Positions 25,438 to 64,000 of a stretch of DNA of 64,000 nucleotides are shown in pieces. The position numbers and the translations under genes are program-made. The notes beneath the pieces are model-generated. The model did not search any database, was not told the DNA's origin, and saw nothing but the letters and a program-made list of their open reading frames with translations. How positions within the stretch are numbered: the first letter of the stretch is position 1; each line of letters starts with the position of its first letter. This stretch comes from Marsupella aquatica (lineage: Eukaryota > Plantae > Marchantiophyta): NCBI GenBank assembly GCA_973895155.1, contig OZ316895.1, positions 4,963,181-5,027,180 of the forward strand, read 5' to 3'.

Positions 25438-26789
25438 TGTCGTGACATATAGTATCGTAGCCATAGTGTATCGAAAAATACAAGTCACCGGCAAGGCATA
25501 TGTGCAAGCTGCTAGCAACCAACATGCATAGAAAAAGTCCCATCACATTTACAAGTGCCAAGAAAAAGCAAATGAGGTGGTATGTAGTAGTGGAGGTGTA
25601 AACCTCTGTATATAAAAGGCGTAAGAGAAACAATTGTACTGAAATCGAATCGAAAACTGGCAGGATGCCAAGATCGGTCGGGAGCATCTAACGAATCACT
25701 GTGTGAATCCCGTGTACAGAATCGACGAGCACTGTTTGAGCTCTGTCAACAACGATTCAAGAAAAACTGAAAACCAACAAAGAAAGACATGCCCTAAGCA
25801 AGCAAAGTCCTGGCGTCACACTAACAAGCACATTTGCTTCAAGAACGGCCCAGACTTGCTACAAGAACATGTCGCTAACTCAGGTAGTACACTAGCCCTA
25901 ACGGCCCCATTCACAATTGGGTGTACCTCGTAGGAACCACTTTCAGGACTCAAAAACATGCTTTTTTAGTGAAAAATAACTTTCGTAACATGGAAAAAGG
26001 TTCATCATGATTTTATGTCAAGACATTTAAGTCTAATTTTTTCACAAGACTATTTTACATGGCGTAACCTACCTCACCATGTAGATACATCAAGTTTTCA
26101 ACTATTTTAAGGGATCCTTTTATTGATGGCCCTAAATAAGCCAAAATTACTAATTATTTTTGTCCTATACATAAAGATTTAGTGTGTGTCACTATTTAAG
26201 TTTTGAAATATAAGATTATGCTATTAGTATGCATGCTTTGGTAAAATTTCATTGTCTAAAATGCATTTTTTAGAGTCCTTTTGAGTCCTGAAATGATGTG
26301 ACCCATTGCGTGACAAGTTCTTTTATCAATCTTTGAAGGACATATAAAGAAAGCTTCAAAGTCTCAAATGCTAGATAGTTTAATGAATGTTACCAACCTC
26401 TAGGATGTTTATTAAGTATAGTACATCAAATTTTCTATATCATCTCCTTACACCCTAAAAATGATATCCTAAAGCATAATAAACTATGGTCACTTTTGAG
26501 TGTGACGTTCCTTTTGGGTCCTCCAATTGTGAATGAGGCCTAACTACATACCTAGCAGGCATGCGAGGGACATGCCAATGTGCATAAGAGGCACTGTCCC
26601 TCGGCATGACAGCTGTCGTGACATATAGTATCGTAGCCATAGTGTATCGAAAACATACAAGTCACCGGCAAGGCATATGTGCAAGCTGCTAGCAACCAAC
26701 ATGCATAGAAAAAGTCCCATCACATTTATAAGTGCCAAGAAAAAGCAAATGAGGTGGTATGTACGTAGTGGAGGTGTAAACCTCTGTAT
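25438..26789 (-). repeat. 3' split-repeat block B1-GC-A2-B2 of copy A2
   Basis: 25438-25611 repeats 26614-26789. 25612-26611 (minus the MITE) repeats 45202-45558. Junction TGACA-GC-TGTCG at 26607-26618. Confidence 0.92.
25903..26540. mobile_element. 638-bp AT-rich MITE (PIF/Harbinger-like) inside repeat A2
   Basis: 18-bp TIR GGCCCCATTCACAATTGG / CCAATTGTGAATGAGGCC (1 mismatch). Flanked by TAA(C) on both sides. Absent from the other A segments. Confidence 0.85.
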
Positions 26790-33923: not shown

Positions 33924-33935
33924 ACATTGAAAGAT
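33924..33935 (+). promoter_or_regulatory. Putative self-priming primer-binding site of element B
   Basis: ACATTGAAAGAT directly follows repeat A1 and is the exact reverse complement of ATCTTTCAATGT at 33734-33745 inside A1. There is no TGG-type tRNA PBS. Confidence 0.7.
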
Positions 33936-36900
33936 CACATTCGAAATCTGTTGTACGGACTGTGCGGACAGAAGTTCGATTGATTGAGTTGTCGACGGTT
34001 CGTGGTAGCTCGGATCGTGTGTTGTTATCGAACAGATTGTTGGTATCTTGACCTGTATCGTTGTTGTCCGATCGGCCTGCTTCCCGATCGATGTACAAAT
34101 CTGTGATTGGTGACAGGTTTTGAGTTGGAGGTCGATTGATGATTCGTGGAGGAAAGCGAATGTTGAGTAGATGTTGGACAGTGGAAGTCGATCCGTGAGG
34201 CTTCAGATCCGATTGCCGGCTACTGTGAGGCTTCAGATCTGATTGTTGGCTACTGTGGGGCTTCAAATCTGATTGCCGGCTATTGTTGGACGATGTTGGC
34301 AAGGCGCAGGTGAAGCGATGGCTCTTTTCCTGAAGGAACGGAGCTGCCAATGCCCCGTGCGACGGTATCATCATTTCAGTGAAAGAAACGAGGGTCAAGG
34401 GTGTTGAATCAAGCTGCTGCCAATTCTGTGGAAGGGCTGCGTTTTTCATGAAGGAAATCAACAGTTTTCGGGAGCTTTTCGTGAAGGAAGTAGTCGTTTT
34501 TGGGGTTAGGTGTGAGGCGCACGAGGTCACCCATCCCGAAAGTGCTCACGCGAGGCGACGCGTGAGGTCACCCATCCCGAAAGTGCTCCCAACCGCGAGC
34601 GCGAAGTCACCCATTGCGAGCGCAGGCAGGCGTGAGGTCGAGGTCACCCATCCCGGGGCTATTCCGGGCCGTGAGCGCGAGGGGAGGCACAAGGTCGAGC
34701 GCGAGGAGGTCACCCATCCCGGGGCTATTCCCAGCCGCGAGCGCTTAACTGGCAAGTTCTCATCCCACCTTGTGTACACACAAGCTTTGACAACTTGTTG
34801 TTTAGATTCAAGCGCCAGGGGGCTTTATACACTTCCCGGTTTGTTTAGAGGCCTATTCTAGGCCAAATCAGAGGCTGTTTGAGGGTTTTTGATACTTCTG
34901 AGTCCATCTAGACTCACAGATTGAACCAATTTTGCCTTGGTTCTCATCTACAACATTGGAGTGCCATTGTGAAGCCTATTATGAAGGCTCTTCCTTGAAC
35001 CTTATGCACATTGTCATATTGATTTGCATTTGCTTTTGTGTGGAGAGTTGAATGGTATCCATTCTTGTTTCTGGATCCTCTTCACACATGTTTCCTGTTT
35101 ATGCGCCATGTTAGTTTCATGTGGGCGCTTGATTCCATAGGAGTGATCCGGGTTTGCAACTGGACATTCTAGTGTGCTGTGTATTTCTCTCTTGGTGATG
35201 TTGGAGTGATGCCCAACACACCATGGTGAGTGCTTGTGGTGCTGACAGGGATAGATTGCCCTTAGGGTTAGCACATAGATTAGGTTAGGGTTGGTCACCA
35301 CGGATTCTTCTGGTGCTGCTGGATTACCCGATGGACGACGGACCGGTTTCACTCGGAGTGGGGCACAGTTTCGGCCAGCGGCATTGGTAGCAGTCAGCAG
35401 TGCAGCTTCAGACAGTGATTCTGATGAGGACTCAGTGACCAGTTCTCCTCATCATCAGGTGGTTGCACCTTTGTTGTGGGATATGGACGAGATGTACGGG
35501 GCTACAAAGGGCCCACGACGATACTCTGGTGCAGTTGGCACAATTGATCTGGATGACTTCATCCAGGAGTTTGATACGTGGTGCGATATGCAGACATTGC
35601 GTAATGTCACGTTGTTTACCCCTTTCATGGCATGGAAGGGATTATTCCAACATTTGGAGGGGCCACCCATGGATGACTACCATGAGTTTCGGAAGGCTCA
35701 TTTGGTTGAGATTGAGGCATGGAGGCAGCATTGGTCACCTAATTACGTGTCCATCACCTATGGCACTAGTGTGGCTGCCCAACCAATTGCCACAGCTGCT
35801 GCTTCTTCTAGCAGCACTAGCCAGAGTGGCACACCATCCACCAGCAGCACTCCAGCAGCATCCACCACTACTCTTGCCGGTGTGATTGTGACAGGAACTA
35901 GAGTTGCGCCAGCATTTAATCATGTGGTGGAATTCTTTGAGGTACTGAAGCAGAACTATCAGGGTGTGAGAACTGATAAGTTGAAGGGTCTTCAGGAGTT
36001 CCAACGCAAGACTGGAGAAAGCCTACGTGAGGCATACACACGTATGCGCAGATTGATCACTGTCACCAAGGGAGTGACAGAGGCTCAGGCAGTCCAATTT
36101 TGGTATGCAATTCTGGACAGAGAATTGCGACGCAGAGTGAGAGATGTCACTCTGCTTAGGGATGCAGATCCCACATTAGCAGTTGTTTTCACCCTTTCTG
36201 AGCGCATTGAGCTCAATATGGTGAATGAGAAGGTGGTGACTTCCGAATTTTCCAAGGAAGCACCAAAGGCTGCATCTACATCCACACTAGAAGCCTACTG
36301 CACGAGAGTCTACCAGCCAGAGACCTGTGCCCTCTTATGTTGGATAGCAGTCAGGATGTTGGACCTGTGGTGGGGATCATGCACAGAGATATTGTCCAGA
36401 TCATAGAGGATCAGGGGGAGCATCAGCGCCTGATCAGCGACAGTGTGATCACTGTGGAGCTCCTGGACACACCAAGGATAGGTGTTTCTCACTCCACCCT
36501 GAGTTACGGAGAGGAGGATCCCGTACACATGATCAGGGAAGAGGAGGAGGAGGTAGAGGTGGTGGACGTGGTCGTGGCATGCCACATGCAGGGAGACAGG
36601 GAGGTGACGCTACCCCTACTGTAACCATAGATCCAAAGGATGCTAAGATTGCTCAATTGGAGCAACAACTAGCTGCCATGGCTAGTTCCCAGGTGAGACC
36701 TAATTCTGGTGATGGGGCATCTACATCCTATGGACCTTCCACATCCCATGGTCCTTCCACATCTTATGGAGCTGATGGAGACCTTGCCACCATGGGATTC
36801 ATGTATGGCACTGCACATATTGATGCATCAGCAGCTTTGACACGTGGGGCAGCCAAAGCTCTTGAGCCCCGAGGAGCAGTAGTGGAGTTAGATCCACAAA

Positions 36901-38117
36901 GGGGGGATGCACGTCGGCAGACAAAGCTTCCTCAGTCTTTTACATTGTCAGAGACAGTTCAGACTGCCTCTATGAACCCGGTTCGGACAAACCCTGATGT
37001 GGGTAAGTTGGCAAAATCAGGTAGTGATGCAGCAGGGATGACAGGTACCTTGCTGGGGGCGGCTACTGCCATAGTACGCACCCCATTATTTTCAGCGACA
37101 GACATGCTGAACTTGGGAGTTGGTCCTGCAGAAGTGTTCAGATTGGCAGCTACACTCTGTGAGGACACTCCAGTGGTTGCTTCCCATGCAGAAGCAATTT
37201 GCAGTGTTGATGCAGTGAAGACCATGCCACCTATTGCTACTAGTGAGACATGGCATGCAGCAACAACGAGGTTGGTGGATTTACCAGCACGCCCTGCATT
37301 TGAGAGGACTAGGTTTAAACCTAGTGTTGTGTCATTGGATAATCGGAGTGGTATCTTCCGATTAGTTGGGCCTTCTGGAGCAGTATACCAGCTAGAGAGA
37401 GTGTTATTGGATACTGGTGCTCAGCCCTTGATGTTGGGGAAGTCTGCCATACGTGGATTGGGATTGCGTCCAGAGGATTTGGAGGATTGTCCCTTTCCCA
37501 TTCAGACTTCATTGGGGGGACCTACACCTACACAGCATATCACCAGGAGACCACTTGATTTGAGGATTCAGGAAGGTCATACCACAGATAGCTCACAGAT
37601 ACAGGCGCGAGCTATTCTGACTAAGGCAGAGTCATATGATGTGTTGGTGGGATGTACAGTGCTCTACCCCATGGGATTTATTCTTGATTTTTGGGAGGAA
37701 TCAGTGTCATATAGACCTGATTGGCAGTCAGGAGATGCTCGATTGAGCAAATTGCCAGTGAGATTTAGTGGACCTATGGGAGGCCCTAAATCCACACCAT
37801 TGTCTTTGGCAGCATTCAGTGGTGTAATTGCTGGACCTGATGATTTGATTGAGGGTAATACGCATGCAGCCGATGTTCCACCATTGGAGGAGTCTCATGA
37901 GGAGCACATCATGCGAGGATTACCTGTTGGCAATGTTGTGCCACCAGTGTGGGGCACTGCACAAGCCTTGCCACAGGCAACAGCACGATTGGTACATGAT
38001 GCATGGCGTCATGCTTTTACACCACAGTCAGGAGCAGAGCAGTCTCTTGCAGATGGACCTGTGACTCTTTCACCATTGGATACCACTCCTATTGCTTGGC
38101 AGTATCCACCGGAGGGT

Positions 38118-39060
38118 ATTTGTTGGTTGGATCTTTTTGGTGGGATTAGCACTGGATTGGCTGCTATTCTTCAGGCAGGAATTCCTGTGCGTCGTTATTT
38201 GTATGTGGAGACAGATGAGACAACACGGAGGGTCTCATTACGACATGTGGCTATGTTGGTGGATAGATATCCACAGTTGCTGCCAGTGGATGCTGTTCGT
38301 GGTTATCAGCATGCACTACCTGCTGATATTTCATTGTTGGGGGCGGATCATCTACATCGTGTTGGCCCCATTGATTTGGTGATTGCTGGTTGGCCATGTC
38401 AGGGCCAATCTAGAGCTGGCATTGGGCATGGACTTCATGATCCATGCTCTGCATTGTTTTGGGAGATGTTACGGGTGTTGCGTCACCTCCAGCTACATCA
38501 GACACAGTCTCCAGCATACATTTTGGAGAATGTGCCATTGTTAGGTGATGATCGTAGTCGGATTGTTGCCAGTGTTCACCAGGTGAGGTCTTGGATTGGA
38601 CCTGCTGTGTTATTGGATGCTGCATGTGTGGGTTCTCGTGCACATCGTCCACGCTTGTGGTGGACTAATTTGATCCCATGTGAGGTGCTGAAGCGTGCAT
38701 TTGACAGCATTCCACGCTCACCAACCTTAGTGGTGGATAATATTTTGGATCCAGGGCGTCGTGCACAGGGTGTGACCCAACCTGATAGACCTCCATTGGC
38801 AATGGTCAATGCAGTTGGGTGCCCACGTTGTGCATTACCCACTCTTGTTAGCCACTCTACTTCATATGCATTCAGAGCAGGTGGCCCTGGACTTGTATGG
38901 GACACAGCTCTCCAGCAGTTAGTGGAGCCTACTGCTGATGAGAGAGAGCGTGCTATGGGATTTTTGACTGGCACCACTGCAGTTGCCTCTGTGTCAGAGG
39001 GTTTGCGGCGCCAGGTTCTTGGTCAAGCAATGGATTTGAATTGTTTGACTTGGATTATTA
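38118..39060 (+). other. DNMT3-like C5 cytosine methyltransferase domain of element B (uninterrupted)
   Basis: WLDLFGGISTG (I), YVETD (II), VIAGWPCQG (IV, catalytic PC), YILENVP (VI), AHRPRLWWTN (VIII), ERERAMGF (IX), RRQVLGQAM (X). Confidence 0.92.
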
Positions 39061-42000
39061 GCTTGGGAGTAGCTGAACAGTTGCGGATGCGCTCTGCTGG
39101 AATTACTGATTGTCCCTTGGTGAGCTTGCGGTCCACTGAGACAGTATTCACCACAGCTGGGGGCGAGCAGACAGTCCATGGACCTATGACAGGATTGGCG
39201 GCTGGACAGACTGTTGAGCAGGAAGGGACTACTCAATCTACTACTAAATAGCAATCATCGGCTATCTCTTCTACCCTACAAAGAGATATTAGGGATTTGG
39301 TGGAGAGTTGGGAACCACAGCTTGGCCCTAAGTTAACAGGGGAGGAGAGACGTTGCATGCATCGATTCCTGAAGAGTTATTGGAATTGTTTTGCATTCAG
39401 CATGAAGGATTTGGGGACATTGAAGGGCCCTGGTATTCAGATTGAATTGGCTAGTGATGCGCCAATCTTTCATAGACCATACCGTTATAGTGACATGGAG
39501 AGAGCTCTGATTCAAAGCAGAACTCAAGATTTGTTGGAGGCTGGATTGGTGGAGATTTCATATGGGGAGTATGCATCTGCCACAGTGATGCTAGCCAAGA
39601 AGGATGTGCAAGGCAATTACACAGATAGGCGCATGTGTGGTGATTATAGACCTATTAATCGCCAGACAAAATCTGATCGATATGCCATGCCCACACCTGA
39701 GGAGATCTTTGATGCTGTGGGGCATGCAAAGGTTTTCAGTTCATTGGATCTGAGGGCAGGATACCATCAGCTTCCAATTAGGCATGCTGACAGGTCCAAG
39801 ACAGCATTCTAGGGGATTGATTCTTATGGCAAAGATCGTTTGTATCAATGGTTATTCTTACCATTTGGGTTGAAGAATGCACCAGTTGAGTTCCAGAGAG
39901 TCATGGATCAAATCATTGCAGGTTTGGATTTTGTTAGATGTTATATTGATGATATTTTGGTCTATTCTTCTACTGTGGAAGAACATCAGCAGCACTTGCA
40001 GACTGTGTTGGAGAGATTGAGAGCACATGGGTTGAAGCTCCATCCTAGCAAGTGTAAGTTCTTCCAAGACCAGATTGAGTATTTGGGCCACACCATATAC
40101 CCAGGGGGATTGGGTGTACAGCAGACTAAAGTGGAGGCCATTACACAGATTCCTTGTCCTACTGATGTGAGTAGAGTTCGTGCATTCTTGGGATTGGCGA
40201 GCTACTACAGGAGGTATGTTAAAGGATTTAGCCAGCTTACTAAACCTTTGACCATACTCACTAAGTTGGATCAGGAATGGATTTGGGGTGATGACCAGGA
40301 GCATGCCTTTCAGGAGTTGAAGCAAAGGTTGGCATCATCCCCTATTTTGAGAAGACCCATTTCAGGCAGACCATTTCAGCTACACACTGATTGGAGTGGA
40401 GTAGGACTTGGAGCAGTGCTGACTCAGAAGGATGATGAGGAGAATGAGTTTGTTGTGGCTTATGCCAGTAGATCAAACAATTCAGCAGAGGCTAAGTATA
40501 GCTCTTATGAGGGAGAGTGTTTGGCAGTAGTGTGGGCTGTTGCACACTTTCGTTGCTACTTGTTTGGTAACCCCTTCACCTTGATCACTGATCATCAGCC
40601 TCTTAAGTGGTTAATGGAGTCTGACAAGCTTACAGGGAAGCTTGCACGATGGGCATTGTTGTTACAGGAGTATGATTTCCAGGTGGTGCATAGGCCTGGA
40701 AAAGTGAACTTGGATGCAGATGGATTAAGCCGCAATCCATGTACCAGTCAGCAGGATGAGACTGGAGCCAGATGGCATGATGAGTCAGATAAGGAGATGG
40801 TGCCAGGATGGCATGCATCTGCCTTTCTTTGTTGGGTGCCAGCATACAGTGGATCTATGGACTCTACTTCATTGGATGGAGTGGGTGATGAGTCTTCAGA
40901 TGTGGATGTTGGTGAGGTAACTTCTGGACAACAAGATATTCACAATGATGTGAGAGTGTTGGAATATCTGCGCAATAGTTCTATTGTTGGCAGTGTTGAT
41001 GCCAAGGAACGTGACAGGGTTCTACAGAGAGCCAAGAGGTTTCGATGGGAGGGAAACCATCTTTTGAGAGTACTGCATGATGGTAGGATGTTGGTGGTAC
41101 CAAAACCATCACAACGAGTACATTTGGTGCGACATGCGCACGAGGAGTTGGGTCACTTTGGTGTGAAGCGCACTTACAGCTTGCTGCAGACGCAGTATTG
41201 GTGGCGTGGTATGCACACTCATGTCCAACAGTTGATAGCTAAGTGTGTGGTATGTGACAGAGTGAGAGCATCATTTAATGCTCCCACTCCCCAGTTGCAC
41301 CCGTTATCGATCATGGGTTTGGGATATCGTTGGAGTTTGGATTTTGCTGGTCCATTACCTCTTACCCAACGTCATAATCGGTATGTTTTGGTCATGGTGG
41401 AGCACTTCTCCAAGTGGATTGAGCTAGTGGCGTTGCCAGATAAAGCCAGTGGAGGAGTTGCTGCTACATTTTTGGATCGTGTACTCAGTCATTTTGGAGC
41501 ACCAGCTGAGGTGTTGACTGATCAGGGAACTGAGTTCCGTGGAGAGTTTGAGAGTTTGTGTGAACAAGCTCTGATTGATCATCGCACTACCTCTTGTGAT
41601 CATCCTGAGGCAGATGGATTAGCTGAGAGAGTTGTGCAAACTGTGAAGAGAGGATTGCGTAAGTATGGCTTGCAGGTTGGTCATCTGGGAGATTGGGATC
41701 TCCAACTACCTTGGTTAGCTATGGGCTACCGTTTCAGTCGGCAAGCATCACTTGCATCCTTCTCACCCTACTTTTTGCTCTATGGTAGAGAGCCAGATTT
41801 GCCAGCAGCTATTCGTCGTCATGCTGCACTAGTTGTGAACTTGGATGATCCTGATGTTTGGGTCAAGGTGTGTTCAGAGAGAGCACGGGTATTTCAGAGA
41901 GTGATGCCCATGGCTTTTGACAACCTTGCCATTGCCCAACATCGTGATACTTTGAGGTATGCCACTATTCGTGGAGGAGGTTACCGTGCAAGCATTCGAC

Positions 42001-42236
42001 GATTTCATCCTGGTGATTATGTTTATTTGCAGCAGACAGCACCCACGACACTTGATGTGACCGCAGGCCGGATAATCTTACGTGTGCGTGAAGTGTTGCC
42101 TTCTGGTGTCCTGATGTTGGAGGGACGCGATGGTATGGTTTGGAAGGATCATGTGCGCAACTGTGCACCATGTCACCTTCCCAACATTGATGGTACAGTA
42201 GATCCAAGCTTGGCACATGTTCGTGCTGGCTTGAAA

Positions 42237-42377
42237 TGTATGTTGTGTGGATCTGCTCAGGGAGCAGCTACTATGTTGATTTGTGATAAGTGTTCTAGAG
42301 GATGGCACATGTCATGTTTGACACCACCATTGCAGGTGATTCCTAGTGGATCATGGTTGTGTCCTCAGTGTCGGTGA
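42237..42377 (+). other. PHD finger at the integrase C-terminus of element B
   Basis: CMLC...MLICDKCSRGWHMSCLTPPL..IPSGSWLCPQC, a C4HC3 pattern. Confidence 0.92.
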
Positions 42378-42550
42378 AGCCGACTAGTTATCATTTGTGT
42401 TCTCTTGGCAGATATGGATTGCAGGTAGGTGATCGATGGGGCTCACTTGCACCCGGCCTCCTGATCTTCACACCTAAAAAGGTGTATATCAACCTTGTAG
42501 AACTCATGGCTAGCTAGAGTTAGAGGACCTTACTCCCAGCTAGGGGGGCG

Positions 42551-43157
42551 ATTGTGGGTTTTGGACATGTGTGGACATGAGTTCCACTTGTATTCCATTC
42601 TCTTGTATTTGTGATGTGGCAGTGTGACTATGTCTGGATGTATGTGACAAGCGATGTATGTTGTGTAGCGATATGTATGCGCACGACAGCTGTCACACCA
42701 TTCTGAGTAGTGTAGTAGTATATCGTGCTATTAGAGTATGTACGTTTGGTATGAGTGCTATTGGAGCCGATAAGATTCTGTCAGGTTTGTGTGAGAGGGT
42801 ACTTCTCACTTGTGAGGCATTGAAAGGTCATCTTTCAATGTTGAGCCTTGGAGAGAGAGGAGCTTGAGTGTGGCTATGGTGGCTGTGAGCTCCGCTTGTG
42901 TAACGTGGATTCCTTGAGTAGTGCAAGGTGCGTTGGCTTGACATACGTGTGTGATCGGATCGGTGCGGGATCGATGGGGTATTGTTGACCGAGATCGTTG
43001 TGCCGATTGTATGGAGATTATTGTGGGTTTTGGACATGTGTGGACATGAGTTCCACTTGTATTCCATTCTCTTGTATTTGTGATGTGGCAGTGTGACTAT
43101 GTCTGGATGTATGTGACAAGCGATGTATGTTGTGTAGCGATATGTATGCGCACGACA
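42551..43157 (+). repeat. 3' split-repeat block B1-GC-A2-B2 of element B
   Basis: The 138-bp B1 (42551-42688) equals B2 (43020-43157). The 329-bp A2 (42691-43019) equals A1 (33595-33923), with about two substitutions seen by eye. Confidence 0.95.
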
Positions 43158-45189
43158 GAGTAACTGGCGCAGTGGTAGGAACTGGAGTAGGAGGGGAAGT
43201 AGTAGGAGCAGCAGCATGGGCTGCAATGGCATTCTGTAATGCCAGTTGTGAGGCAGCTGCAATTGCACTAGCATAGGGAGGATTAGGCAATTGTGTGACA
43301 GCAAGCAACCGTTGAGAGTGCTGCTCATACACATCGAAAGCCTCATGGTGCACATACCTGGCTAGCTGCTTAAATGCAAAAGCATTTGTGAAATTGCTGC
43401 CGTACTTCAACTCCAATTTGTAAATGATAGTGTAGAAAGTGGATTTGAACTCACGCAAAGAAACAGTGCCTGGCCGCCCACTGAAGCGCTCAATGCGGCT
43501 AGATGAGTGACTGGCATCCATGCTGTATGTCGGTGAAGCTAGAACAATCACTGATGCAAAATTGCCGAGACTCCAATGAAATGGGCACCAACGGTCGTGG
43601 ATCACTCCGTAAGTGGTACCTGGGCGTTGGTGGCGATGAGCTGCTACCTCCCGGCTCGTTTGCTGACATGCTATGTGACAGTACCCAAATTGTGCAAAAT
43701 GTGTAAAGACTAAGAAAACCCGTCACTGTCAAAAAACCGTCAGGGAAAACGGACCCTTAAAACCTCAAATGTACCCGTGTTGTGCTTGCCGGAAAGACCA
43801 TTTGATGTGTATGCCGGGCCCTCACCGTGATGCAGATAAAATGTGGTGGCATCAAAGAAATCCGGGAAGAATAGGCCCTTAAACGTGAATAGGCCCCCCC
43901 CACCTTAAGTGTATACACATCCGGGCCCCATTGTGGACCCGGAAACTGCAGCCGGACCGGCCGAGTGTGTATACACGCTCGTGGCACGCTCCCTATGCAG
44001 CGGTAGTCGGAAGGCGTCGAAAAGAGGCGAGGAGGTACTATGACCGGCGAGGGAAAGAAATGGGAGGCAACTCGTGAAGGCAGCGGCCGAGGCGAGGCAA
44101 GGCGAAAAGGAGAGAAGTCGGCAGAAAAGAAACAGGCCCCTCTTAAGTCGAGGGGGAAGGAAGGAAAACGGTCAAAAAAGGGAAAACCGGGCACGATGCC
44201 CTGTGCATTGACAGTCGATGGTGAAGGGCGAGGCAAAAGAAAACCGGACCCTAATTAATTCGGGCCAGCACTTGAGGCGAGGCAGGGCGTTCAGAAAGAA
44301 AGGAGCCCCTGACGTGAGCCCTCCATAGGGCTTCGTGCCCCCCCAATATGAGCTCCCGAATAGACGGGGCTACGAGCTCCCCTCCCCTCCTGAAAGGTTC
44401 TGTGGGCCTCGTGCCCTGGTGAAAGTGTGACTCCCGAGAGAGGGAGTCAAATGTACTCCCCTCCTCCCTTAAATGCTTCATAGGGCCGTGTGCCCTCTCC
44501 TTGCGCTCCCCCCTCCCCTCTTTTAATGCTGTATTGGGCTTCGTGCCCTCTCCTGGCAGTCGCTCCCCCTCCTCCCTGCTTTCGCTTGTACTTGGCTCCC
44601 CCCTGCCCCTGCATTAATGCATAATAGGGCCTCGTGCCCTCTCCATGCTTGTGCCTCAACTTAATCCCCCTTCCCTACTGTGTAATTGTTGGCAACAGGC
44701 GAGGGAGGAAGAAAAATGCCGAAGGGAGGGCGCACGGCCCTATGCGCGACCCAGGGCAATGATGAGCCCCGCATGTGTATACATAGGGGAGGCAGCTCAC
44801 GACGGTAGCTGCGAGGGGAGGCAAAATGAAACGACGGCCGATGACAGAAAAGAAAGAACGGGACCCCAAAGGGTCGTCAAAACGTAAGGGGAAGGGAAGG
44901 TGGTCGCGCTGCGACCGGAAAACACCGAATATGGCCCGAAAAAGGTCGTGGCAGTCAGCAGTCGGCAGCCATAGTCGAAAGCAATTATGGAAGCAGATCG
45001 AGTTGCGGCTGGCAAGAAAAATCCGGGCCCCTTGTTATGTGTATACACTTAAGTATACACATAACACCACCATAAACCCATAACTTTTAACTCAACACTC
45101 CGATGTCCGTCGAAGAAATTGCAATGGCTTCACCAGAAATTGTCGAGATCATCACAAGCAATCTTCTTCCCCTCACCACTATCTCGACG

Positions 45190-45201: not shown

Positions 45202-45558
45202 ATAAAAGGCGTAAGAGAAACAATTGTACTGAAATCGAATCGCAAACCGGCAGGATGCCAAGATCGGCTGGGAGCATCTAACGAATCACTGTGTGAATCC
45301 CGTGTACGGAACCGACGAGCATTGTTTGAGCTCTGTCAACAGCGATTCAAGAAGAACTGAAAACCAACAAAGAAAGACATGCCCTAAGCAAGCAAGTCCT
45401 GACGTCACACTAACAAGCACATTTGCTTCAAGAACGGCCCATACTTGCTACAAGAACATGTCGCTAACTCAGGTAGTACACTAGCCCTAACTACATACCT
45501 AGCGGGCAGGCGAGGGACATGCCAATGTGCATAAGAGGCACTGTCCCTCGGCATGACA
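45202..45558 (-). repeat. 5' repeat segment A1 of copy A2
   Basis: Matches 25612-26611, 7385-7742 and 62763-63121. Confidence 0.92.
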
Positions 45559-52300: not shown

Positions 52301-53671
52301 ATATGACTCTAACTTGTAGCACGTTGGTTTGGGTGCAAAGTTGATTGATTTAAGAGTGGGATCAACATTTTCGTGCAGCTCAAGCCAATGTCAATGGAGA
52401 CATAATGCCTAAGGTCAATTCACATAGCAAACAACCAATATTACTATCATAATGATTCTTCTTAGCACTACATATTGTATTCTATCTTCTAACAATGCAA
52501 GGTCACAAAATTGCCTTGAAACCTTAGAGACAATCAACTGCTGAACTACTCAAGTCATTATATTTGGACTACAGCAGCACCACCTGCCAAGTAGAATCAA
52601 TCTTGGGCCATACTCCCATCCCGGAGCTAGGGAGGGCTCAAGACCAAATACCAGAATCAATCTCAAGATACTCTGTTCCCTAGCACCAGCTCAACTAACT
52701 ACCAAAAACAATTCTAACCTTGTGGGCAATTGCATTAAAGTTCACATTCCTTTGTATTCTTGCCTCATTTTTACTCATCTTAATAATAACTAAAGCAAAA
52801 CCTTTTTACTTCTTTCCCAACAATCATGGTGTACATGGCTCAATTGTTTTTGCAAAACGCCTCCACAAAAGGACTGTCTCCCTTTGAATTGTTGCCCAGC
52901 AGCACCCAACGCTAGGGTAGTTGGGTGGGAAACTAATTTTAGAATATTAATAAACCCAAGGCGCAGTTTTTTGTTTTTTAACGTTAGTTGATTTGGGTAT
53001 TGGATGACACTATACTAGACCACTAAAGTGCCATGGGCACTCAATTTGAGTTGAGAAGAGTACTTTCTCAACTAAGATGAATTGAAAAGTTAACTTTGCT
53101 TTTCTCCTCACTTTTCTCAACAACGAACACTAAGCTTGTTGAATTATGACATCTTCCTTCATGATGATCCAATCATTACTCATACCATGCACACGTAGTC
53201 GACACAATCTCTACGTGGTTCACCTCTTCTCCAAGGCTACGTCCACACGACCACAACAACTTTACTTCACAATAGTCGAACACACAAGCTCTCTCTCTTC
53301 CTCAAGTTGCTTCGTTACAATGAGCAAGCGGGTGAGCAAGCACCACACACCAACGGCTTACACTAGCCCTGGTATATACAAGGTCACAAATGACTAACCT
53401 AACCTTAGCTAAATCCCTAACTGTGGTTAGCCTAAGTGCCGTAACCTATGATTCACTGTCGTGACATATAGTATCGTAGCCATAGTGTATCGAAAACATA
53501 CAAGTCACCGGCAATGCATATGTGCAAGCTGCTAGCAACCAACATGCATAGAAAAAGTCCAATCACATTCCCAAGTGCCAAGAAAAAGCAACTGAGGTGG
53601 TATGTACGTAGTGGAGGTGTAAACCTCTGTATCCCCCCCAGACCACAGTCACAAGGAGGGCTGAGGAAAAG

Positions 53672-56600
53672 TTAGGTGGCATGTGGAGCACAGGAAGGGC
53701 AAAACCATAACCCTTCTGGCACCTAGGTAAGTTCAGGCCACAGGCAGAAAAGATGGTACCCTCCATTGCAATTATCACATAGCAGCATCTGGTCAGCATC
53801 GTCAATTCGCAAACACACTTTGCAAGGGTAGTCCACAGGTGGAATCCAAGTAGAAGTCACAATGGTGGGATCCAGGTTAGGCAGATGACAAGGGGCGCAA
53901 TTCTTGGCATTGTCAGCAATTGTGCGCCCATCTGCCCCTTGTAACTCTAGCACTCCAGACGATCGAATAGCTTTAACCGTGAGAATAGTACGACTGGTAG
54001 AGGTGTCCAGGGTGTCGTTAGCTTGCCGCTGCAAGTACACAAAATCTGCCACATCAAACTTCCTGACCTTGGGCTGAAAAGTGCCCCCTCGTGTGTGTGC
54101 ATAACGCAGTGTGTCCCTATGTTGTGCAATGGCCAAATTCTCCATGGCCATGGGCATAACCCTCTTGAATAGGACAGCCCTCTCAGAGATCACATCAGAC
54201 CAAGTCATAGCTGAATCCAAGTCCACCACCTGAAGCATGTGAGCAGCAATAGCAGAAGGTGGAACTGGGTGACGACCAAACAACAAGAAGTAGGGAGAAA
54301 AGTTAGACAATGATGCATGTCTAGACATCCTATACCCCATGGCAATGTAGGGTAAGGCCAGGTCCCAAATCCTCCTTGTTTTTGGTGAGGCAAATCTTCC
54401 GGAGACCCTTCTTGCATGTCTGAACCATGCGCTCTGCCAAGCCATCTGCCTGTGGGTGATCTCGTGATGTCCGGCGATGATCAATGAGGGCCTGATCAAG
54501 CAGCTCCTGGAACTCTCCTCTAAACTCTGAGCCCTGGTCAGTGAGACATTCTGCACAAGCTCCAAAGCGGTTGAGAACTTGTTGCAGGAATGCCTAGCTG
54601 GTGCTACGGGAGGTCTTATCCGGCAATGCCACAAGTTCTATCCACTTGGAGAAATGCTCTATCATGATCATGATGTAGAGATTACCCCGAGATGTGAGGG
54701 GTAATTCTCCAGCCAAATCACATGACCAACGATAAAACATGCCCTGAATAGGGAGTGGATGAAGTGTGGGTTGTCGAGATGTGAAAGAAGTCCTTACCCT
54801 ATCACACTGCTCACACCGGGCAATAACATCTCGAACCTGGCCATGCATGCCTCTCCAATGATAATGAGGGACCAAGAGGCTGTAAGTCCTCTTAACGCCA
54901 AAATGACCAAGCTCAGAATGTACCTTGCGGATAAGGCCAACCCTCTCATGAATGGGTGGAACCACCACTTCCCTATCTGGCAAGCAGCGCACAAGATGAT
55001 CTCCCTTCCACAAGTAGCGCTTGGACCTTTGCTGAATTCGGTCTCTCTGGGCAGCAGTAACATGGGTGGGGTACTCCCCATGCTGCAGAAATCTCAGAGT
55101 GTCGATGTCCTCCCATATGTCCACCACAGGTTGGTCAACAACATAGCATGGCAGCAAAGCAAGATAGGTAGATGCATGAAATGTAGGCAGGATGGAAACC
55201 TGGTCAAAATCCTGTCATGCATCTGAGGAATCATCAGAGGCAATCAAAGGGCTGCGGGACATAGTGTCAGCATTTTGATGTGTCACACCAGGCCTATGAA
55301 TTACCTCAAAATCATACTCCTGGAGTATGAGCACCCAACGAGCAAGCTTGCCAGTAAGCTTGTCGTTGGTCATCAACCACTTCAAGGGCTGGTGGTTGGT
55401 GTAGAGGACAAACCTGGTCCCATAGAGGTAGGGCCTGTAATGTATGACAGCCCACACAACAGCAAGGCATTCACCCTCATACGAAGAATAATGACTCTCT
55501 ACTTGATTGTTGCTCCTGGATGCATAGGCAATGACGTACTCTTTACCTTCCTCATCATGCTGGCCCAGAATGGCACCAATCCCAAGGGCACTCCAATCTG
55601 TGTGGAGCACAAAGACCTTGCTGAAATCAGGTCTTCTCAGCACCGGGTATTCTGAGAGCTTCTCCTTCAAAGTGGCAAATGCTGCCTCAGCATCTGTACT
55701 CCATGTCCAAGTCACATTCTTTTTCAACAAAGCATACAATGGGTGTGCAATGGTGCTGAAATCTTTGATGTAGATCCGGTAGTAATTGCACAACCCAATA
55801 AAACTCCTCAAAGTGTGAACATCGGTAGGAGTGGGCATTTCCAAGATGGATACCACTTTGGCCCAGTGAGCCATGGTTCCATTTGGAAGAATGCGGTGCC
55901 CAAGGTATACTACTGATCTGACAGCAAATTCACACTTCTTGGGGTGTATCTTAAGGTTCACCTTCTTAAGCCTCATGAATAGTTCCTCGAGGTCAAGTAG
56001 ATGCTGGTCAAATCCTTTGCTGTGGACCAACACATCATCAATGTAGCATTTCAGAAACTCAGCACCTTGAAGAACCTGGTCCATGACTCTTTGAAAGAAT
56101 ATGGGTGCATTCTTCAAGCCAAATGGCATCACCAACCACTCCCATAGTTGGTTACTACCATGGAAAGTTGTTTTCTTGCGGTCCTTTGCAAGCAACAAAA
56201 TCTGGTTAAAGCCTTGCCTTAGATCCACAAGAGTGAAGATGTCTGAGTCTCCAATGCTGTCAAATAGCTCCTCTGGCCGTGGCATGGGGTACCTGTCCTG
56301 GGGTGTGACCAGGTTCAGTGGCCTGTAGTCCCCACACATGTGCTTCTCTGTCCATAATCCACTGGAATCCTTCTTTGCTGGCATCACTGTAGCTGCTGCA
56401 AAATCTGATGTAGATGGCTGAATAAGACCAGCTTCATATAACTCTTGGCACCTCTCATCCACCAGCTGCCACTCATGCTTACTCAAACGATGTCTCCGCC
56501 TGAAGATAGGTGTTTCATCAGCCAACTCAATGGAGAACTGCATGGTCTTGCACTTACCCAAGTCCTTCATAGAGAAAACAAACACGTTCTCATGCTTGAG

Positions 56601-59600
56601 GAGCAAATTCAGCAGCTGGTCCTTCTGTCTTTTACTCAGGTGGTTGCCCATGATGAACGTGTAGTTGGCAACACTAGGAATAGGACCTGATGTACTCGTG
56701 CTTGAAGAGCCAGAAGTGCTAGCCTCTCCACTGTCCAAGCTACTAGCATGCTGCTGATAAGGTGACGAGGCCTCGCCAAGGCCTGTTGTATCTGTTGCTC
56801 TGGTCTGATCCACACCATGAAACTCAGAAATAATATCAGCCACGTTACAAGGGACCTCCTCCCCCCCAACACTTGGACTGAAGAGGTGAGTGTTGAATAG
56901 AGGTAAGTGCACTTGGTCTGGATGCCATGTAGTAGCACCATGGAGTGGTAGGGCTGGAACTCCTGATGCTGGATGAATGTACATCTGAAAAAGGATGCAA
57001 GTGACCAGAAGCCAAGTGAGAGCATTAAGATCCATTACCCTGCCAAGTAAAGCATTCCTGGCCAGCTTGGTGATTTTGGTGTGGCATGTAGTACCGGGTT
57101 GGAAGCCCATAGCCCGTTCTCTCTCCTCAGGACTAGGTTCATCCCATGTACCGGTAGAATGTCGGTAAACCAGGCCAGGACCATCACCCTAAAAAGCATG
57201 TGCACCTGGAAAGGACACAAATGTAGGCCAAGCAGCATGGGGCTGTCCAATGGTATTGGCTGGATACCAAGGTGCTGGCTCTTGCTGTGTAACTGGTTGG
57301 CAAGAACTATCAGGATCCAAAATCTGGTCCATTGTGAGGTTAGTGTCCATGGATGTGTGGTGAAGAGCTAACTCCAACAAGGAAGGTGGTGCAAGGTTAG
57401 TCCAAAAGTTACGAAGACGATGTGCATAATAACCACAGTGCACTGCATCAATGAGAAGGGGTGGTCCCAAGTAGTGCTGGACCACACTGAAATCCTCTTT
57501 GACCTGTGGTCGCTGGTCAAACTGAGATGGAGTATTCTCAATGATATAACCAACAGTAGGATAGAGGGATTGAGCCCAGGTGAGAATCTGAACCAATGCT
57601 GTGAAAAGGCCAGAACGAGAATCATACAGTCCAGCACCGTGACCAGCAGCTGAAAACCCTTGGCATTCCCAACCAGCTATGATAAAATCAAGGGAGCCAA
57701 GAAGGGTTAAGTGTCGGTGCTGCATGGACAAGCTGGATATCTAGAGGAAAGAAAGAAAATGCAGACTTCCATGCACTGTGTGGAAACTGCTGAGGAAATT
57801 GCTCTTGCCTTTGCCTTGCACCTGGATCAATATCCACATAGATGTACTGCTTCACCACCATGCCAGACTGTAGGAGAGCTTCCAGGCCTGTAGAAATGCC
57901 ACCAAAAAGCTCAAGCAATGTAAGGCCATCCGGAGCAGGAGTCCATGTAATTGGTGCGCTCAAGATTGGGGCTATTGGTTGTCCATTGTGCTGCCCAAGG
58001 TCTTCAAACTTGCGCAATGCAGCCACCAAAGGTCCATGGGCTGCTTGGAGCCGTTGTACCACCTCTGGTTGATGATCCACGTTGCTGGAAAGTGCTACTA
58101 TACGTGCAGCAGCATGTGCAGTAGCCACCTCATCGTCATCCTCCTCAATCCAATCTTGCAATGGGTGGTTGACATAGGTAGCTGTGTGCACTGCTTTCAA
58201 CACACAGTGGTGAGCCATAGGTGTATGGGCACCATGCAAATCAAGTGGAATGTAGCCCAAGTGTGAGCCATCAGTATGCCAATCAACTCTGTAGTATGCA
58301 TGCTCATGCTAGTTGTCAATGGTAAAACCTGGTGGGAACAAAGCCTCCTGGCCAATGAGCACATCATACGTAGTGGCATTGGTAACCAAACATCTGACTG
58401 GGAAATGCAGTTCCTGATCTATACCTCCATTAAAAGTGAGAGTGAGTAAAGTAGAACTCTCACCCAGCACATCCTCCATAGTGCCACTAGCAGTCCGAAT
58501 GTGCCACTTGGATTGTTGTAAATGATCAGTCAACAGTCCCATCTTCTTGGCAAACTGAATGCCCAATATCACTGGTTGAGCACCTGTGTCTAGCATGACC
58601 ACCTGAGGAGTGTGACCCTCCAACTTGACCACTAAATTCCTGTTGTCAACAATGGCAATGGTGGTGGAAACTGAAGTCCTGTCACTAGGCACCACTCTCA
58701 GCAAATGATGAGGTACCTTGTGAAGGGAGTTAGTGTCCATGGTCTTTCCACTCAACAACATAGCCAGGAAAGATGGAGCAGCATGACCAGAATCAAGTGT
58801 AGCTCTGGTCACACAATTAGCAGCAATCGGTACTGGGGCAGCCAAACCAGTGGAAACATGTAAAGGAGAAGAAGAAGGTCCAGTATGTACATGAGATTGG
58901 ACCTCCAAAACCAGTGTCACAAGGGCTGATGAAGAATGCACTGAACCCTCTAGCGCCCTGAGGACAGCTCTAGCATCCAACTGTAAATCATGGCAACTGA
59001 AAAGTGGAGTGGTAAGAATCCTTTGTGCCATACCGGAGGTGAAATGCTCAAGCAGCTCAGGAGAAATAACTCCCTGTGAAATGTCAGCAGCACCTGGTGG
59101 TGGAATGGATGTAGCTGCAGCTCCCCCCCCTCGCCAACAAGGTGCGCTCTTTAGCAAGTGTGAGTGGCTGAAAAGATTGGGGCATGATAGCCCGAGCTCC
59201 CTTGGCTCTAGTCATAGGACCGGCAACAAGACCATCAGCCTGTACAATGCGGCATGTGGGAGCAATACGGGAGGCAACACTGGCCTGCTGGTAAGCAAAA
59301 TAGGAAGGGCAGAATGAATCTGAAAATTCTGTTGTAAGGCCAGGCTATGGAGCGGAGGACAGCACACACTCACCCATATGAGCATCAAATGGCAAGCCAT
59401 AGAAAGAGCGGGGTAGAGGTGTTGAACTGTCAGTGGTGCCTGGGCCAAGGATGGGTTGCACGTGACCAACCGGTTGAGAAGGACCAGCAGAGGCAGTTGA
59501 CTTGCCTTTGATGTTGGCAAGTTGGGCACGTAGGGACTCAACCTCATGAGTCAGAGACTGGAGTTGAGTTGCCTGTGCATTGTGAGTCTCCTTCTTAGCT

Positions 59601-61015
59601 GGTTGCTTCTGTTGCTGCTTGGGCGGTTTGTTCACACTGGATGCTTTGCCACTAGAAGGAGGAGCAGTTGATGCAGTAGGAGCCCTCCTAGCTGGTGGGG
59701 GAGTGGAAGCAAGAGCAGGAGGAGGGGCCTACTGTCGTAGCTGCTGCCTCTCTAGGAATTTGGTAAAACAAACTGCCTCCAAGTGACCCACTTTTCTGCA
59801 AAAATCACAAGACAGATCCTCAGCAACAATATCACAGTCATTAGCCTTGTGATTGGGGTTACCACAGTAGTTGCAAGATGGCAGCATCAAAGCAGCATGG
59901 GCTGGCTTGGTCTTGGAACCATACTGTGGCACACGGGAAGGGGTGGCCAGTGTAGGGGCAGCAACCTGGTACCTGGATCGCGGTGGACGTGCAATACTGG
60001 CCTCATAATGTGCATGGGCCAACTCAAGTTTCTCAGCAGTGTCATAGACATTGAGCAGGGTGTAGCTGTCTCCAAACTCTGAGAATACTTGCTGTAACAC
60101 TTGCGAATGGAGACCTGGTGTGCCCTCCAATGCGCGAAGATAGCGATGAGCAGCTTCCAAGTCAGTGATGCTCTGGGTGTCCTCCTTCAGCTTGAGAAGC
60201 CGGCGATACATCATCTTCAAGGTTTCATCGCGCTGCCTCACAAAGGTGGCCAATTGCATGATTTTGTCAGCACTCTTGATTGGGAATTCCAATTCAAGAA
60301 CCTGGAAAAACTCAGCCACTGGATCAGCAGAGGCAGGGGAATCAATGGTGGGAGAAATGCCTGATAAAGCCTGCGCCAAGACAGTGGGAGTAACTGGTGC
60401 AGTGGTGGGAACTGGAGTAGGAGGGAAAGTGGCAGGAGCAGCAGCATGGGCTTCAATGGCATTCTGTAATGCCAGTTGTGAGGCAGCTGCAATTGCAGTG
60501 GCATAGGCAGGGTTAGGCAATTGTGTGACAGCAAGCAGCCGTTGAGAGTGCTGCTCATACACATCCAAAGCCTCGTGGTGCACATACCTGGCTAGCTGCT
60601 TAAATGCAAATGCATTTGTGAAATTGCTGCCGTACTTCAACTCCAATTCGTAAACGACAGTATAGAAAGTGGATTTGAACTCACGCAAAGAAACAGTGCC
60701 TGGCCGCCCACTAAAGCGCTCAATGCGGCCAGATGAGTGACTGGCATCCATGTTGTATGTCGGTGAAGCTGGAACAATCACTGATGCAGAAGGAGTAAAG
60801 GGCAGAGAAGCGATAGCAGGCTTCGGGGTAGTGGTAAAGCGACCGCCAAATGTAGCAGAAGGATTGCGTGGTGTGGGTGCTGCTGCTGTCTGCTGGCGTC
60901 GTCGAAATTGCCGAGACTCCAATGAAATTGACACCAACGGTCGTGGATCACTCCGTAAGTGGTACCGGGGTGTCGGTGGCGATGAGCTGCTACGACTCGG
61001 CTCCTCTGCTGACAT
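53672..61015 (-). pseudogene. Disrupted gag-pol of copy A3
   Basis: ORFs 59729-61057 (Gag), 58309-59157 (PR), 57189-58260 (DNMT pieces), 55215-57110 (RT/RH), 54594-55157 and 53723-54634 (IN, PHD). Multiple stops and frameshifts. Confidence 0.9.
57005..57925 (-). other. DNMT3-like domain of A3 (frameshifted)
   Basis: LLELFGGISTG, IIAGWECQG, YIIENTP, AHRLRNFWTN, MGFQPGTT, RNALLGRVM. Confidence 0.87.
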
Positions 61016-64000
61016 GCTGCATGCTAACCCGGGGTGCCAAATTGGAAATGGTAGCAACAGGAAATGTCTCCACCCCCCCTCTTTTTCTGGTGGTATGGGG
61101 TGCTGTTGGGAAAGAAACTGACAAGAAAAGAAATGGCAACCCCAAGGCTAGGAAATGAAACCCACAAAGGAAACAAACAATGCGAGGCAGAAATGTGTAG
61201 AATGTGTAAGCACCGAGAAACCGTCAGAGTTTATGCAAATGACATGTGGCGGCAACAAAGAAATCCCGGAAAAATGGGTCCTTAAACGTGAATAGGGCCC
61301 CCCCTTAAATGTATACACATCGGACCTAAATTTCCCCCGTTGTATATACACATCGCACGTCAGAATAAGTGGCCGAGTGGGGACAGGCGCACACGGCCCT
61401 ATGCAGGGTGTTGCCCTGTGTAGGTTGCGCAGTGAATGGCGACCACGGCCGGTAAGAAAAGTCGACTTGAAGCAGGTCGCAGCCAGAAAGAAGTAGGTCG
61501 CGGCCCTATGCACTCCCGTATGTGTATACACAGGGGAGCGGGTGGCAGGGAGAAAGAAAACGGCCGAAAAAGGGAGGACCGGGTACGAACTGTTGAGGCG
61601 AAAAGAAAACAAAAAAGGTGAGGCGAGCAAAAAGAAACCGGCTCCTTAATGGGGCCGAGCCCTGCATAGGGCTTTGCACCCCCTCCCCTCCTTGCAAGCT
61701 GTCGAAGAGGAGCTACGAGCCCCCTTCCCCTCCTTAAATTTATTGTTTTGGGCCTCGTGCCCTGGCAGGAGGACTCCTCCTGAGGGAAGAAGTCGAATGT
61801 ACTCCTCCCTCTCTTTACTCCATCTCCCCCTCCTTTAATGTAGCATAGGGCCTCGTGTCCACTCCTTGCGCTCCTGCAGTCCTGCTCCCCTCCTCCTGGC
61901 TTTAATGTTGCTGAAGGGGCTTTGTGCCCTGCAAGAGGGGACTCCAGGGAGTCGAATGTACTCTCCCCCCCTTGAATGCTTCAGAGCTGCCTAGGGCCTC
62001 GTGCCCTACTTTCGCTTCCCCTCCCCGGGTCCCCTTGCTTTGCTTGGCAGGCCTCCCGAGAGACTCCCTCTCCTCCTTTTAATGCAACATAGGGCCTCGG
62101 GCCCTCCTGCCTTGGCCTGGGGCGAAAATCTACTCCCGAGTGAGGGAGTTCGAATTGGACTCCCCTCCCCTGCTTTAATGCTGCCAAGGATGCTGGCAAC
62201 GGTAGGAAACAAATGAAGGAATGGGCGAGGGAGGAAGAAAAATGCCGAAGGGAGGGCGCGCGGCCCTATGCATGACCCAGGGGCAATGATGAGCCCCGCA
62301 TGTGTATACACAGGCAGGACCAGGAGGCACCTCGCGACGGTAGTTGCGAGGGGAGGCGAAATCAAACAACGGCAGGTGAGGGAAAAGAAAGAACAGGACC
62401 CCAAAGGATCGTGAAAATGTAAAGCGAAGGGAAGGTGGTCGCGCTGCGACTGGAAAACACCGAAAATGGCCCGAAAGGTCGTGGCAGTCAACAGCCGGCA
62501 GCCATAGTTGTAAGCAGCAAAGGGTCCCCGGATGCAACCGGAAAGAAAAAATCAGGCTCCAACAGGAGCGTTATGTGTATACTTATGTTAAGTATACACT
62601 TAACACCATATTGAACCCATAATTTCAACCCGTACCTCCATTGTTGCTCAAAGAAATTGCACCGGCTTTGACGGAAATTGTCTGGACCGACATAGCAGCT
62701 GAGAAGCACAACGTCTTTGATCTTCTTCCCTTCACCGCTAACCCGGCGGCAGTTCTTCTTGAATGAAAGGCGTAAGAGAAACAATCATACTGAAATCGAA
62801 TCGAAAACCGGCGGGATGCCAAGATCGGCCGGGAGCATCTAACGAATCACTGTGTGAATCCCGTGTACGGAACTGACGAGCACTGTCTGAGCTCTGTCAA
62901 CAGCGATTCAAGAAGAACTAAAAACCGACAAAGAAAGACATGCCCTAAGTAGATCAAGTCAAGGCGTCACACTAACAAGCACATTTTGCTTCAAGAATGG
63001 CCCAGACTTGCTACAAGAACATGACACTAACTCAAGTAGTACACTAGCCCTAACTACATACCTAGCGGGCATGCGAGGGACATGCCAATGTGCACAAGCG
63101 GCACTGTCCCTCGGCATGACATCACAAGACTAAGAGCAATCCTTAACAAAGCTTTCTAGCTAGTAGCTAAATTCTATCTAGAAGATTTGTCGCCCAATTT
63201 GTCAATTTATTTTCAAATAATTGAAAATTCTGGACATTTCACTGAAGTCTGACTTTGGCAAGTTTTGAATTAGAAGTTAATAGCCTCATGACCTTGACGC
63301 AACTATTCACCGAATGGAGAAGGGCAAAGCTTAAGCTTTGAGAAGAGAGAAGTATGATTGGGAAGCGAAACTGTTAGTCATGTTGTGTTGGACAAGTATG
63401 ATATATTCTACACTTTGCATTGTTTAAATTATATTTTCTCACGGAAGCATTGTGGACCCATTGAGCAATGGCCGCTTGAGAATTTTGGCATTCCTTCAAC
63501 TGCCACATGAATACTTTGCTTTGCAGGCCAAAGTTGACGACATGGTTATCACAAGCAATTGTCAAATTCAGACCTTTTCGCTACATATATGTTGCAACCA
63601 AATTCTCAAGCTAATTAAGAGGTCAAAATACAATCCATGGCAAGTCCATTACTTTGAAACCAAAACAATGTCTGATCAAATGAATTATATCAGTTCATTG
63701 AATTCAAGTTCCGACTATAGCTAGCAGTTTGCCTAAAAGGTAAAAGGCCAAAAATCTTACTCCAGGTGCTAATTACCCTTTAACAAAAAAGTTATCAAGT
63801 CAGTTATTAGTCATTGTTTGTTATACAAAAGAAATACTTTTTGAATCTTTGAATTTAAGTTTTAAAATTAGAAATGTAACTAAAACGGTTACATAGTGAT
63901 AATTTTACTCGTCTTGCTCTTTGTATTTCTAAATTTTACATTTTCTTTTTACTGCATGGCGTCCCAAACTTTACGTCCAAATTGAGGCAAACACGAATGA

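Follow-up and report, generated by a model that had tools for sequence, protein, structure and literature searches.

Copy A3 is a Ty3/gypsy-type retrotransposon insertion at positions 53457–63121 (minus strand) of a 64,000-nucleotide stretch of the genome of the liverwort Marsupella aquatica (contig OZ316895.1, positions 4,963,181 to 5,027,180), hereafter the window. It consists of a segment A, an internal coding region and a segment B, and has no repeated ends. We somewhat favour the view, at a probability of roughly 55%, that A3 took its repeat-less shape at integration, the integrase being predicted to cut within the terminal repeat. In what follows, copies A1, A2 and A3 are sister copies in the window, segments A and B are the parts of a split repeat, and A1/A2 and B1/B2 denote the copies of these segments within one element.

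The tips of A3 read TGTCGTG (53457, plus strand) and TGTCATG (63121, minus strand) and are flanked by TCAC at 53453–53456 and 63122–63125 (plus strand). A sequence-only reading of the window had described this arrangement, A-internal-B with TGTC(A/G)TG tips, a TCAC target-site duplication (TSD) and no flanking A or B duplicate, and the exact coordinates together with self-BLAST of the window, which reveals neither a further A nor a further B next to A3, bear it out. The insertion point lies about 25 bp inside a high-copy host repeat, a TG…CA unit of about 290 bp resembling a long terminal repeat (LTR) (53188–63148 including A3, minus strand). Other copies of this repeat that lack A3 carry a single TCAC in four of four runs (joint 53452 to 63122, where the four letters fit either side), showing that the duplication was made by A3 insertion. 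Segment A occupies 62763–63121 (359 bp, 5′ terminus TGTCATG) and segment B 53457–53632 (176 bp, 3′ terminus ending ACGACA, 96–97% identity to either B segment of copy A2), both on the minus strand; A would correspond to the 3′ part of U3 plus R and U5, and B to the 5′ part of U3.

Sister copies carry split repeats, in which B, not TG, follows the polypurine tract (PPT). Copy A2 (25438–45558, minus strand, TSD GACT) reads A1 (45202–45558)-int-B1 (26614–26789)-GC (26612–26613)-A2 (25612–26611)-B2 (25438–25611). Copy C belongs to a second family, with about 67% nucleotide identity in integrase, and lies within the gag region of its host element, copy A2 (33595–43157, plus strand, TSD GAGT); it reads A1 (33595–33923)-primer-binding site (PBS)-int-PPT-B1 (42551–42688)-GC-A2 (42691–43019)-B2 (43020–43157). 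Both therefore have the order A1-int-B1-GC-A2-B2, with one 4-bp TSD around the whole split form. Copy C is young, with two changes in 326 positions between A1 and A2 and identical B1 and B2 over 138 bp. In copy A2, B1 and B2 differ by one substitution in 174 sites and two indels and A1 and A2 at 13 of 357 positions, a contrast that chance or local gene conversion may explain. Within copy A2, the second A also holds a 633-bp AT-rich insertion (25903–26535) with imperfect inverted ends (CATTCACAATTGG), which resembles a miniature inverted-repeat transposable element. Copy A1 (1–7742, minus strand, from self-BLAST) is represented by its 5′ part, its 3′ end lying beyond the window.

In copies A2 and C, B starts at a G-rich PPT and the second A stops where the first A is followed by a 12-nt stretch complementary to part of A, giving the primer/PBS pairs AGTTCTTCTTGA/TCAAGAAGAACT and ATCTTTCAATGT/ACATTGAAAGAT in the two window families, an arrangement matching that of Tf1-type self-priming (PMC4600332). 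Because B starts at the PPT and the second A ends at a self-priming PBS, we infer a linear complementary DNA (cDNA) of the form B-GC-A-int-B-GC-A; the reverse-transcription repeat would be B-GC-A, and the CA/TG integrase ends would lie head to head within it, inside U3. The earlier proposal of CA-GC-TG as an integrase site inside this repeat is supported, the PPT and self-priming PBS setting the repeat as B-GC-A in three hosts. A3 retains the same signals on its minus strand. A G7 PPT (53633–53639) adjoins B, at the equivalent position in relatives, and the PBS TCAAGAAGAACT (62751–62762) adjoins A and is complementary to A3's own segment A (14-nt perfect inverted match), suggesting self-priming. 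The predicted self-primer and transcript start, AGTTCTTCTTGA (62908–62919), is identified by complementarity and pairs with the PBS in the predicted fold, for which the whole-fragment z score is a modest −1.9. In relatives this motif is preceded, about 32 nt upstream, by a TATA box; none was found in segment A of the window's own copies.

We propose that the RNA starts inside A and self-primes, and that the resulting linear cDNA, B-GC-A-int-B-GC-A, has blunt ends that are not integrase sites. The sites would be two attachment (att) ends abutting head to head in ACGACA-GC-TGTCATG, and a staggered cut after each CA would produce CA-3′ ends of the usual kind, with overhangs of 2 nt. For the left end of the insertion, the first site would always be used. 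Were the right end to come from this same site, and were host end-joining to link the free cDNA ends either ahead of insertion or immediately afterwards, the live split form would result. Were it to come from the second site, or were a 1-LTR circle with its single site the substrate, the product would be A-int-B. Such a product, having no 3′ R, would be dead in cis: minus-strand transfer of A3 in cis would fail because there is no R at the 3′ end, even though primer, PBS and PPT are kept. As the sequence-only reading had proposed, A3 has no downstream R and has the shape expected from a 1-LTR circle opened at the site, from linear cDNA cut twice or from B1×B2 deletion. The first two of these routes, and annealing repair right after insertion, would give an identical sequence.

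The lineage is present in liverworts (Calypogeia, Riccia and Marchantia), Klebsormidium and Closterium, as judged by protein search, and the Klebsormidium nitens retrotransposon proteins P0042, P0053 and P0070 are 46–54% identical to the reverse transcriptase (RT), RNase H and integrase region of copy A2. For a census of forms we scanned metagenome contigs and used the best 80 of 498 confirmed loci. B followed pol in 51 of these (29 lacked it), 50 had a readable 3′ end (the contig of L063 stops in B), and after removal of nine duplicate views of sites already counted 41 distinct sites remained, from which one with an ambiguous end (L027) was dropped. The resulting 40 distinct copies comprise 19 single-B and 21 split forms. 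A free choice between two B ends would yield the ratio of about 1:1 that is observed.

Single-B relatives with both tips have a perfect 4-bp TSD in five of six cases (L014, L054, L055, L069 and L076), and split relatives in six of ten, with one or two mismatches in the other four. The remaining single-B copy, L009, has no clean 4-bp TSD; its flanks (3893–3899 and 12965–12972) may represent an imperfect 8-bp duplication or four extra bases. Single-B and split copies are intermixed in the tree, which has low resolution, and the single-B copies form no clade of their own; such scatter is expected for repeated by-products. Because the repeat-less form is common and TSD-flanked among relatives, it is a regular product and not a one-off, and the idea that such a copy is a rarity is not supported, about half of the sampled relatives being single-B.

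The predicted signals are also conserved outside the window. The att junction reads TCACGACA-GC-TGTCATGC in relatives, and in 12 of 23 relative 5′ ends a perfect inverted match of 11–16 nt links A to the sequence at its end or immediately beyond, with compensating changes relative to the window; self-primer and PBS change together between hosts. Methyltransferase matches occur in 59 of the 80 metagenome loci and in Marchantia P0098. Two contigs binned in a cyanobacterial metagenome-assembled genome (L139 and L140) are eukaryotic contamination and carry a third host's family. This family has the same GACA-GC-TGTC site; L139 shows a self-primer match of 13 nt, and L140 the split form. The L139 contig is circular, with an end overlap of 127 bp and a single B-GC-A, but we did not accept it as a genuine 1-LTR circle, since collapse of the A1/A2 repeats produces an equal cycle in an assembly graph. 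The 58 RT matches in viral contigs were distant (26–33% identity) and were not used.

The A|B joint of the split form is exact in 8 of 20 split relatives and altered in 12, by gains or losses of 1–6 bp, by large deletions or by extension past the PPT, and single contigs in runs X2 and X3 have an extra base there. This imprecision is consistent with cDNA ends being end-joined anew at every cycle and not with template copying; retroviral 2-LTR circles likewise arise by end-joining of cDNA ends (PMC5314604). Among individual joints, B2 of L057 (13267–13571) reaches about 140 bp upstream beyond the PPT, and large deletions occur in L031 (13135–13278) and L007 (13246–13275), all of which are typical of mis-primed or resected cDNA ends.

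The mirror form, A-B-GC-A-int-B, was not seen: none of 23 relative 5′ ends and none of 4 in the window have B before A1. If the mirror form made up a third of products, the chance of its absence would be about 1e-4 (computed for 22 ends). A symmetric 1-LTR/2-LTR circle model predicts the mirror form, contrary to these data. Every observed product uses the first A end, whereas the right end can be either B. Candidates for what marks the first site are the PBS, a palindrome in the 5′ untranslated region (UTR) and strand timing. The palindrome forms a hairpin in A3 (62575–62599, minus strand) and is retained, near-perfect, in the other two sister copies (45036–45066 and 7220–7250) despite diverged surroundings; it is a candidate RNA dimerisation signal or mark distinguishing the first att site.

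The strongest alternative is that A3 inserted in the split form and later lost GC-A2-B2 by B1×B2 recombination or single-strand annealing, keeping its TSD. We regard this as possible, at rather less than even odds. Such a deletion yields exactly the A3 sequence, A3 is decayed, and singles without a mirror form are explained with no need for a choice between B ends. Several further observations weigh against formation at integration. The single-B form accounts for 5 of 15 copies among the younger relatives and 11 of 21 among the older (Fisher p 0.32), 4 of the 40 copies having been dropped for inflated branches (L047, L054 and L062, single; L002, split), and a model of steady conversion following insertion does no worse than, indeed slightly better than, one with a constant share (log-likelihood −24.2 versus −24.7). 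The metagenome copies, with a repeat identity of about 81–96%, are all old, so time was available for deletion, and B1 and B2 are only about 300–360 bp apart, a spacing at which repeats are a good substrate for single-strand annealing. The proposed mechanism also gives no reason why the second A end is never used, and its cDNA forms, circles, RNA start and integrase activity are predictions from sequence.

Later deletion is in turn disfavoured by the age proxies, which are alike for the two forms. The sequence-only reading had called for a genome-wide count of A-int-B against split copies and a comparison of their ages; run on the metagenome relatives, this gave 19 versus 21, and five age proxies showed no significant difference (p 0.20–0.80). 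In split copies, terminal branch length rises with repeat divergence (rho 0.73, n = 18). Recombination between A1 and A2 should leave solo A-B units, as had also been predicted, and we found none among 20 A|B matches in 925 kb of partly redundant loci, a small and pol-biased sample. B1 and B2 are not homogenised, being no more alike than A1 and A2 in nine split copies (0.109 versus 0.120, p 0.30), and there is thus no sign of frequent B1×B2 exchange. In run X1, single-contig depth, which is not copy number, is about 1200–1330 inside the element, with 1835–1970 for the B tip and 596 for the joint B-GC-A. This pattern is a rough hint that about half of the window's younger family is single-B, the majority contigs being 1–2% from A3. 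The absence of solo A-B units, the lack of B1/B2 homogenisation and the depth pattern each lend weak support to formation at integration. Under later deletion the proposed family mechanism, with its internal att site and end-joined cDNA, would be unchanged, and only the origin of the repeat-less form would differ.

It is very unlikely that A3 is an assembly artefact in which B1-GC-A2-B2 collapsed into a single B at 53457. The same assembly separates B1 from B2 both in copy C, where they are identical, and in copy A2, where they are nearly so, and was therefore able to resolve the longer form. Contigs matching the A3-specific 5′ UTR with 0 differences are present in runs X1, X2 and X3, among the contigs listed. 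Counting against our account, no contig among those listed (99% identity, 53330–53800) bridges 53456|53457 with 31 letters either side, though contigs drop rare variants. The metagenome relatives are likely to be short-read assemblies, but their B1 and B2 differ by 6–13%, too much for k-mer collapse, and both forms are present side by side.

A similarly slight chance attaches to the idea that A-int-B is a DNA unit bounded by terminal inverted repeats (Ginger-like), with the split form arising by tandem insertion of a short A-B derivative beside it: the 7-bp inverted tips, the 4-bp TSD and the absence of direct repeats from A3 suit it, but a single TSD spans the entire split form with nothing other than GC separating the units, the 20 A|B matches include no free A-B unit, and the inner joint of the short unit falls at the PBS/PPT boundaries in two window families and two other hosts, which only reverse transcription explains. 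Ginger-like elements have integrase and no RT and move as DNA; A3 has RT, RNase H, PBS and PPT, so that the DNA-transposon-like character noted previously survives in outline only.

By its proteins the element is Ty3/gypsy, with the domain order gag-protease-RT-RNase H-integrase and a DDE integrase (Pfam, tblastn), and its CA/TG termini and 4-bp TSD agree with the TG…CA ends and 4–6-bp TSDs of that group. An ordinary LTR element has two direct terminal LTRs, with a PBS after the first and a PPT before the TG of the second; A3 has no direct repeat. PAT, Ngaro and TOC1 are DIRS-order elements with split direct repeats, for which circle-based insertion is the usual model and which are not known to make a target-site duplication. 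The window elements have a DDE integrase, 4-bp TSDs, CA/TG ends and a PPT, unlike the DIRS order with its tyrosine recombinase, and neither a tyrosine recombinase nor a chromodomain gave a Pfam match in the 20 open reading frames (ORFs) scanned. We conclude that the element is Ty3/gypsy in its proteins, differs from both ordinary LTR and DIRS elements, and behaves like a circle- or internal-site-integrating element. IS911/IS3-family circle junctions, in which two ends are abutted across a 2–3-bp spacer and opened by a DDE enzyme, offer a parallel among bacterial DNA transposons; these do not reverse transcribe, unlike the window family.

The closest published layout is that of KnitGypsy-Dnmt3 of K. 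nitens, for which a Fig. 4 legend gives a DIRS-like repeat order A-coding-B-A-B (de Mendoza et al. 2018, PMC5890265). The window elements share with it a Gypsy Pol with a cytosine methyltransferase (PF00145 in copies A2 and C, broken in A3) and the A-int-B-A-B layout, found in copies A2 and C and the 21 distinct split relatives, A3 being a reduced form; the layout is also that of DIRS-order elements such as SymbioDIRS-Dnmt3 (PMC5890265). The likeness to KnitGypsy-Dnmt3 is one of layout and methyltransferase presence. That account, in the part available, is silent on TSDs, on any att site or primer, and on a PHD finger, a repeat-less form and a mechanism (PMC5890265). Within the literature searched, including sources available in part, the split layout on a methyltransferase-bearing Gypsy appears in print only as this figure-legend remark for K. 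nitens. We found no published account of an internal att site, self-priming, repeat-less form, asymmetry or mechanism for such elements, although literature coverage was incomplete (most subscription journals, theses and Repbase reports).

Individual features have precedents elsewhere. REM1 is a Chlamydomonas gypsy element with a PHD finger. Gypsy-7a_cRei of Chlamydomonas is likewise a Gypsy with a PHD finger but, in the available part of its description, has two LTRs (the left without 8 bp), unlike the split repeats here (PMC9940879). The Tf1/Sushi group and the plant Tcn1 clade self-prime with a PBS complementary to the element's own LTR, as the window family is predicted to do from complementarity, but as far as the available parts of the sources go they have ordinary TG…CA LTRs and mostly chromodomains (PMC4600332, PMC6317226), whereas the window family has a PHD finger, a methyltransferase-like domain, permuted repeats and no chromodomain match. 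The REXdb survey mentions neither PHD nor methyltransferase in the part available (PMC6317226). Retroviral integrases (HIV-1, foamy virus) can cleave a palindromic 2-LTR junction internally (PMC1905944, PMC4372172), and 1-LTR and end-joined 2-LTR circles are retroviral by-products (PMC5314604). The retroviral palindrome is a ligated junction on a side route, whereas that of the window family would be templated in U3 and the ligated junction would not be the cut site.

The accepted view is that LTR retrotransposons and retroviruses insert by the tips of a linear cDNA, circles being dead ends or side routes. The genomic products described here point to a lineage with internal att sites, a live form that needs joined cDNA ends and a repeat-less form that is equally common. 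Evenly balanced in our judgement is the broader proposition that this is a widespread streptophyte Ty3/gypsy lineage with integrase sites in mid-U3 and end-joining-dependent live copies, using the first site for the left end and either for the right, so that about half of its insertions are LTR-less dead copies. If true, a third logic of integration would stand next to linear DDE integration and tyrosine-recombinase circle integration. Circle-based integration by a DDE integrase becomes testable in bryophyte models, given that the RT-RNase H-integrase piece of copy C matches the annotated Marchantia Mp_2g26090 at 75% identity. The share of such elements in bryophyte genomes is likely to be under-counted, because LTR finders would miss or mis-bound repeat-less copies, which also cannot be dated by LTR pairs.

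A3 itself is a decayed copy, with stops and frameshifts (tblastn), and its worth is as evidence on mechanism. On the minus strand it contains a gag-like ORF with a weak zinc knuckle (59729–61147; PF00098, under the curated cut-off), an aspartic protease (58339–58629; PF13975), a broken C5 cytosine-methyltransferase-like region (57168–57950; tblastn with P0037/P0098), RT and RNase H (55218–56462; PF00078, PF17917) and an integrase with H2C2 and rve core and a C-terminal PHD finger, interrupted by one stop and one frameshift (53675–55211; PF17921, PF00665 and PF00628, and tblastn with P0001). PF00145 matches lie between protease and RT in copies A2 and C; the A3 fragments give no PF00145 match. 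The host repeat that bears A3 is followed at 53179–53187 by what is presumably a tRNA-Met-like PBS remnant.

Elsewhere in the window, consecutive alpha/beta-hydrolase (DUF676), NB-ARC and leucine-rich repeat (LRR) frames at 11534–16680 (minus strand) look like a hydrolase-NLR (nucleotide-binding, LRR) immune gene, a type that occurs in bryophytes, and a diverged LRR fragment lies at about 8345–9350. An ORF with a lysine methyltransferase domain (PF10294) at 19960–20820 (minus strand) is probably a host gene.

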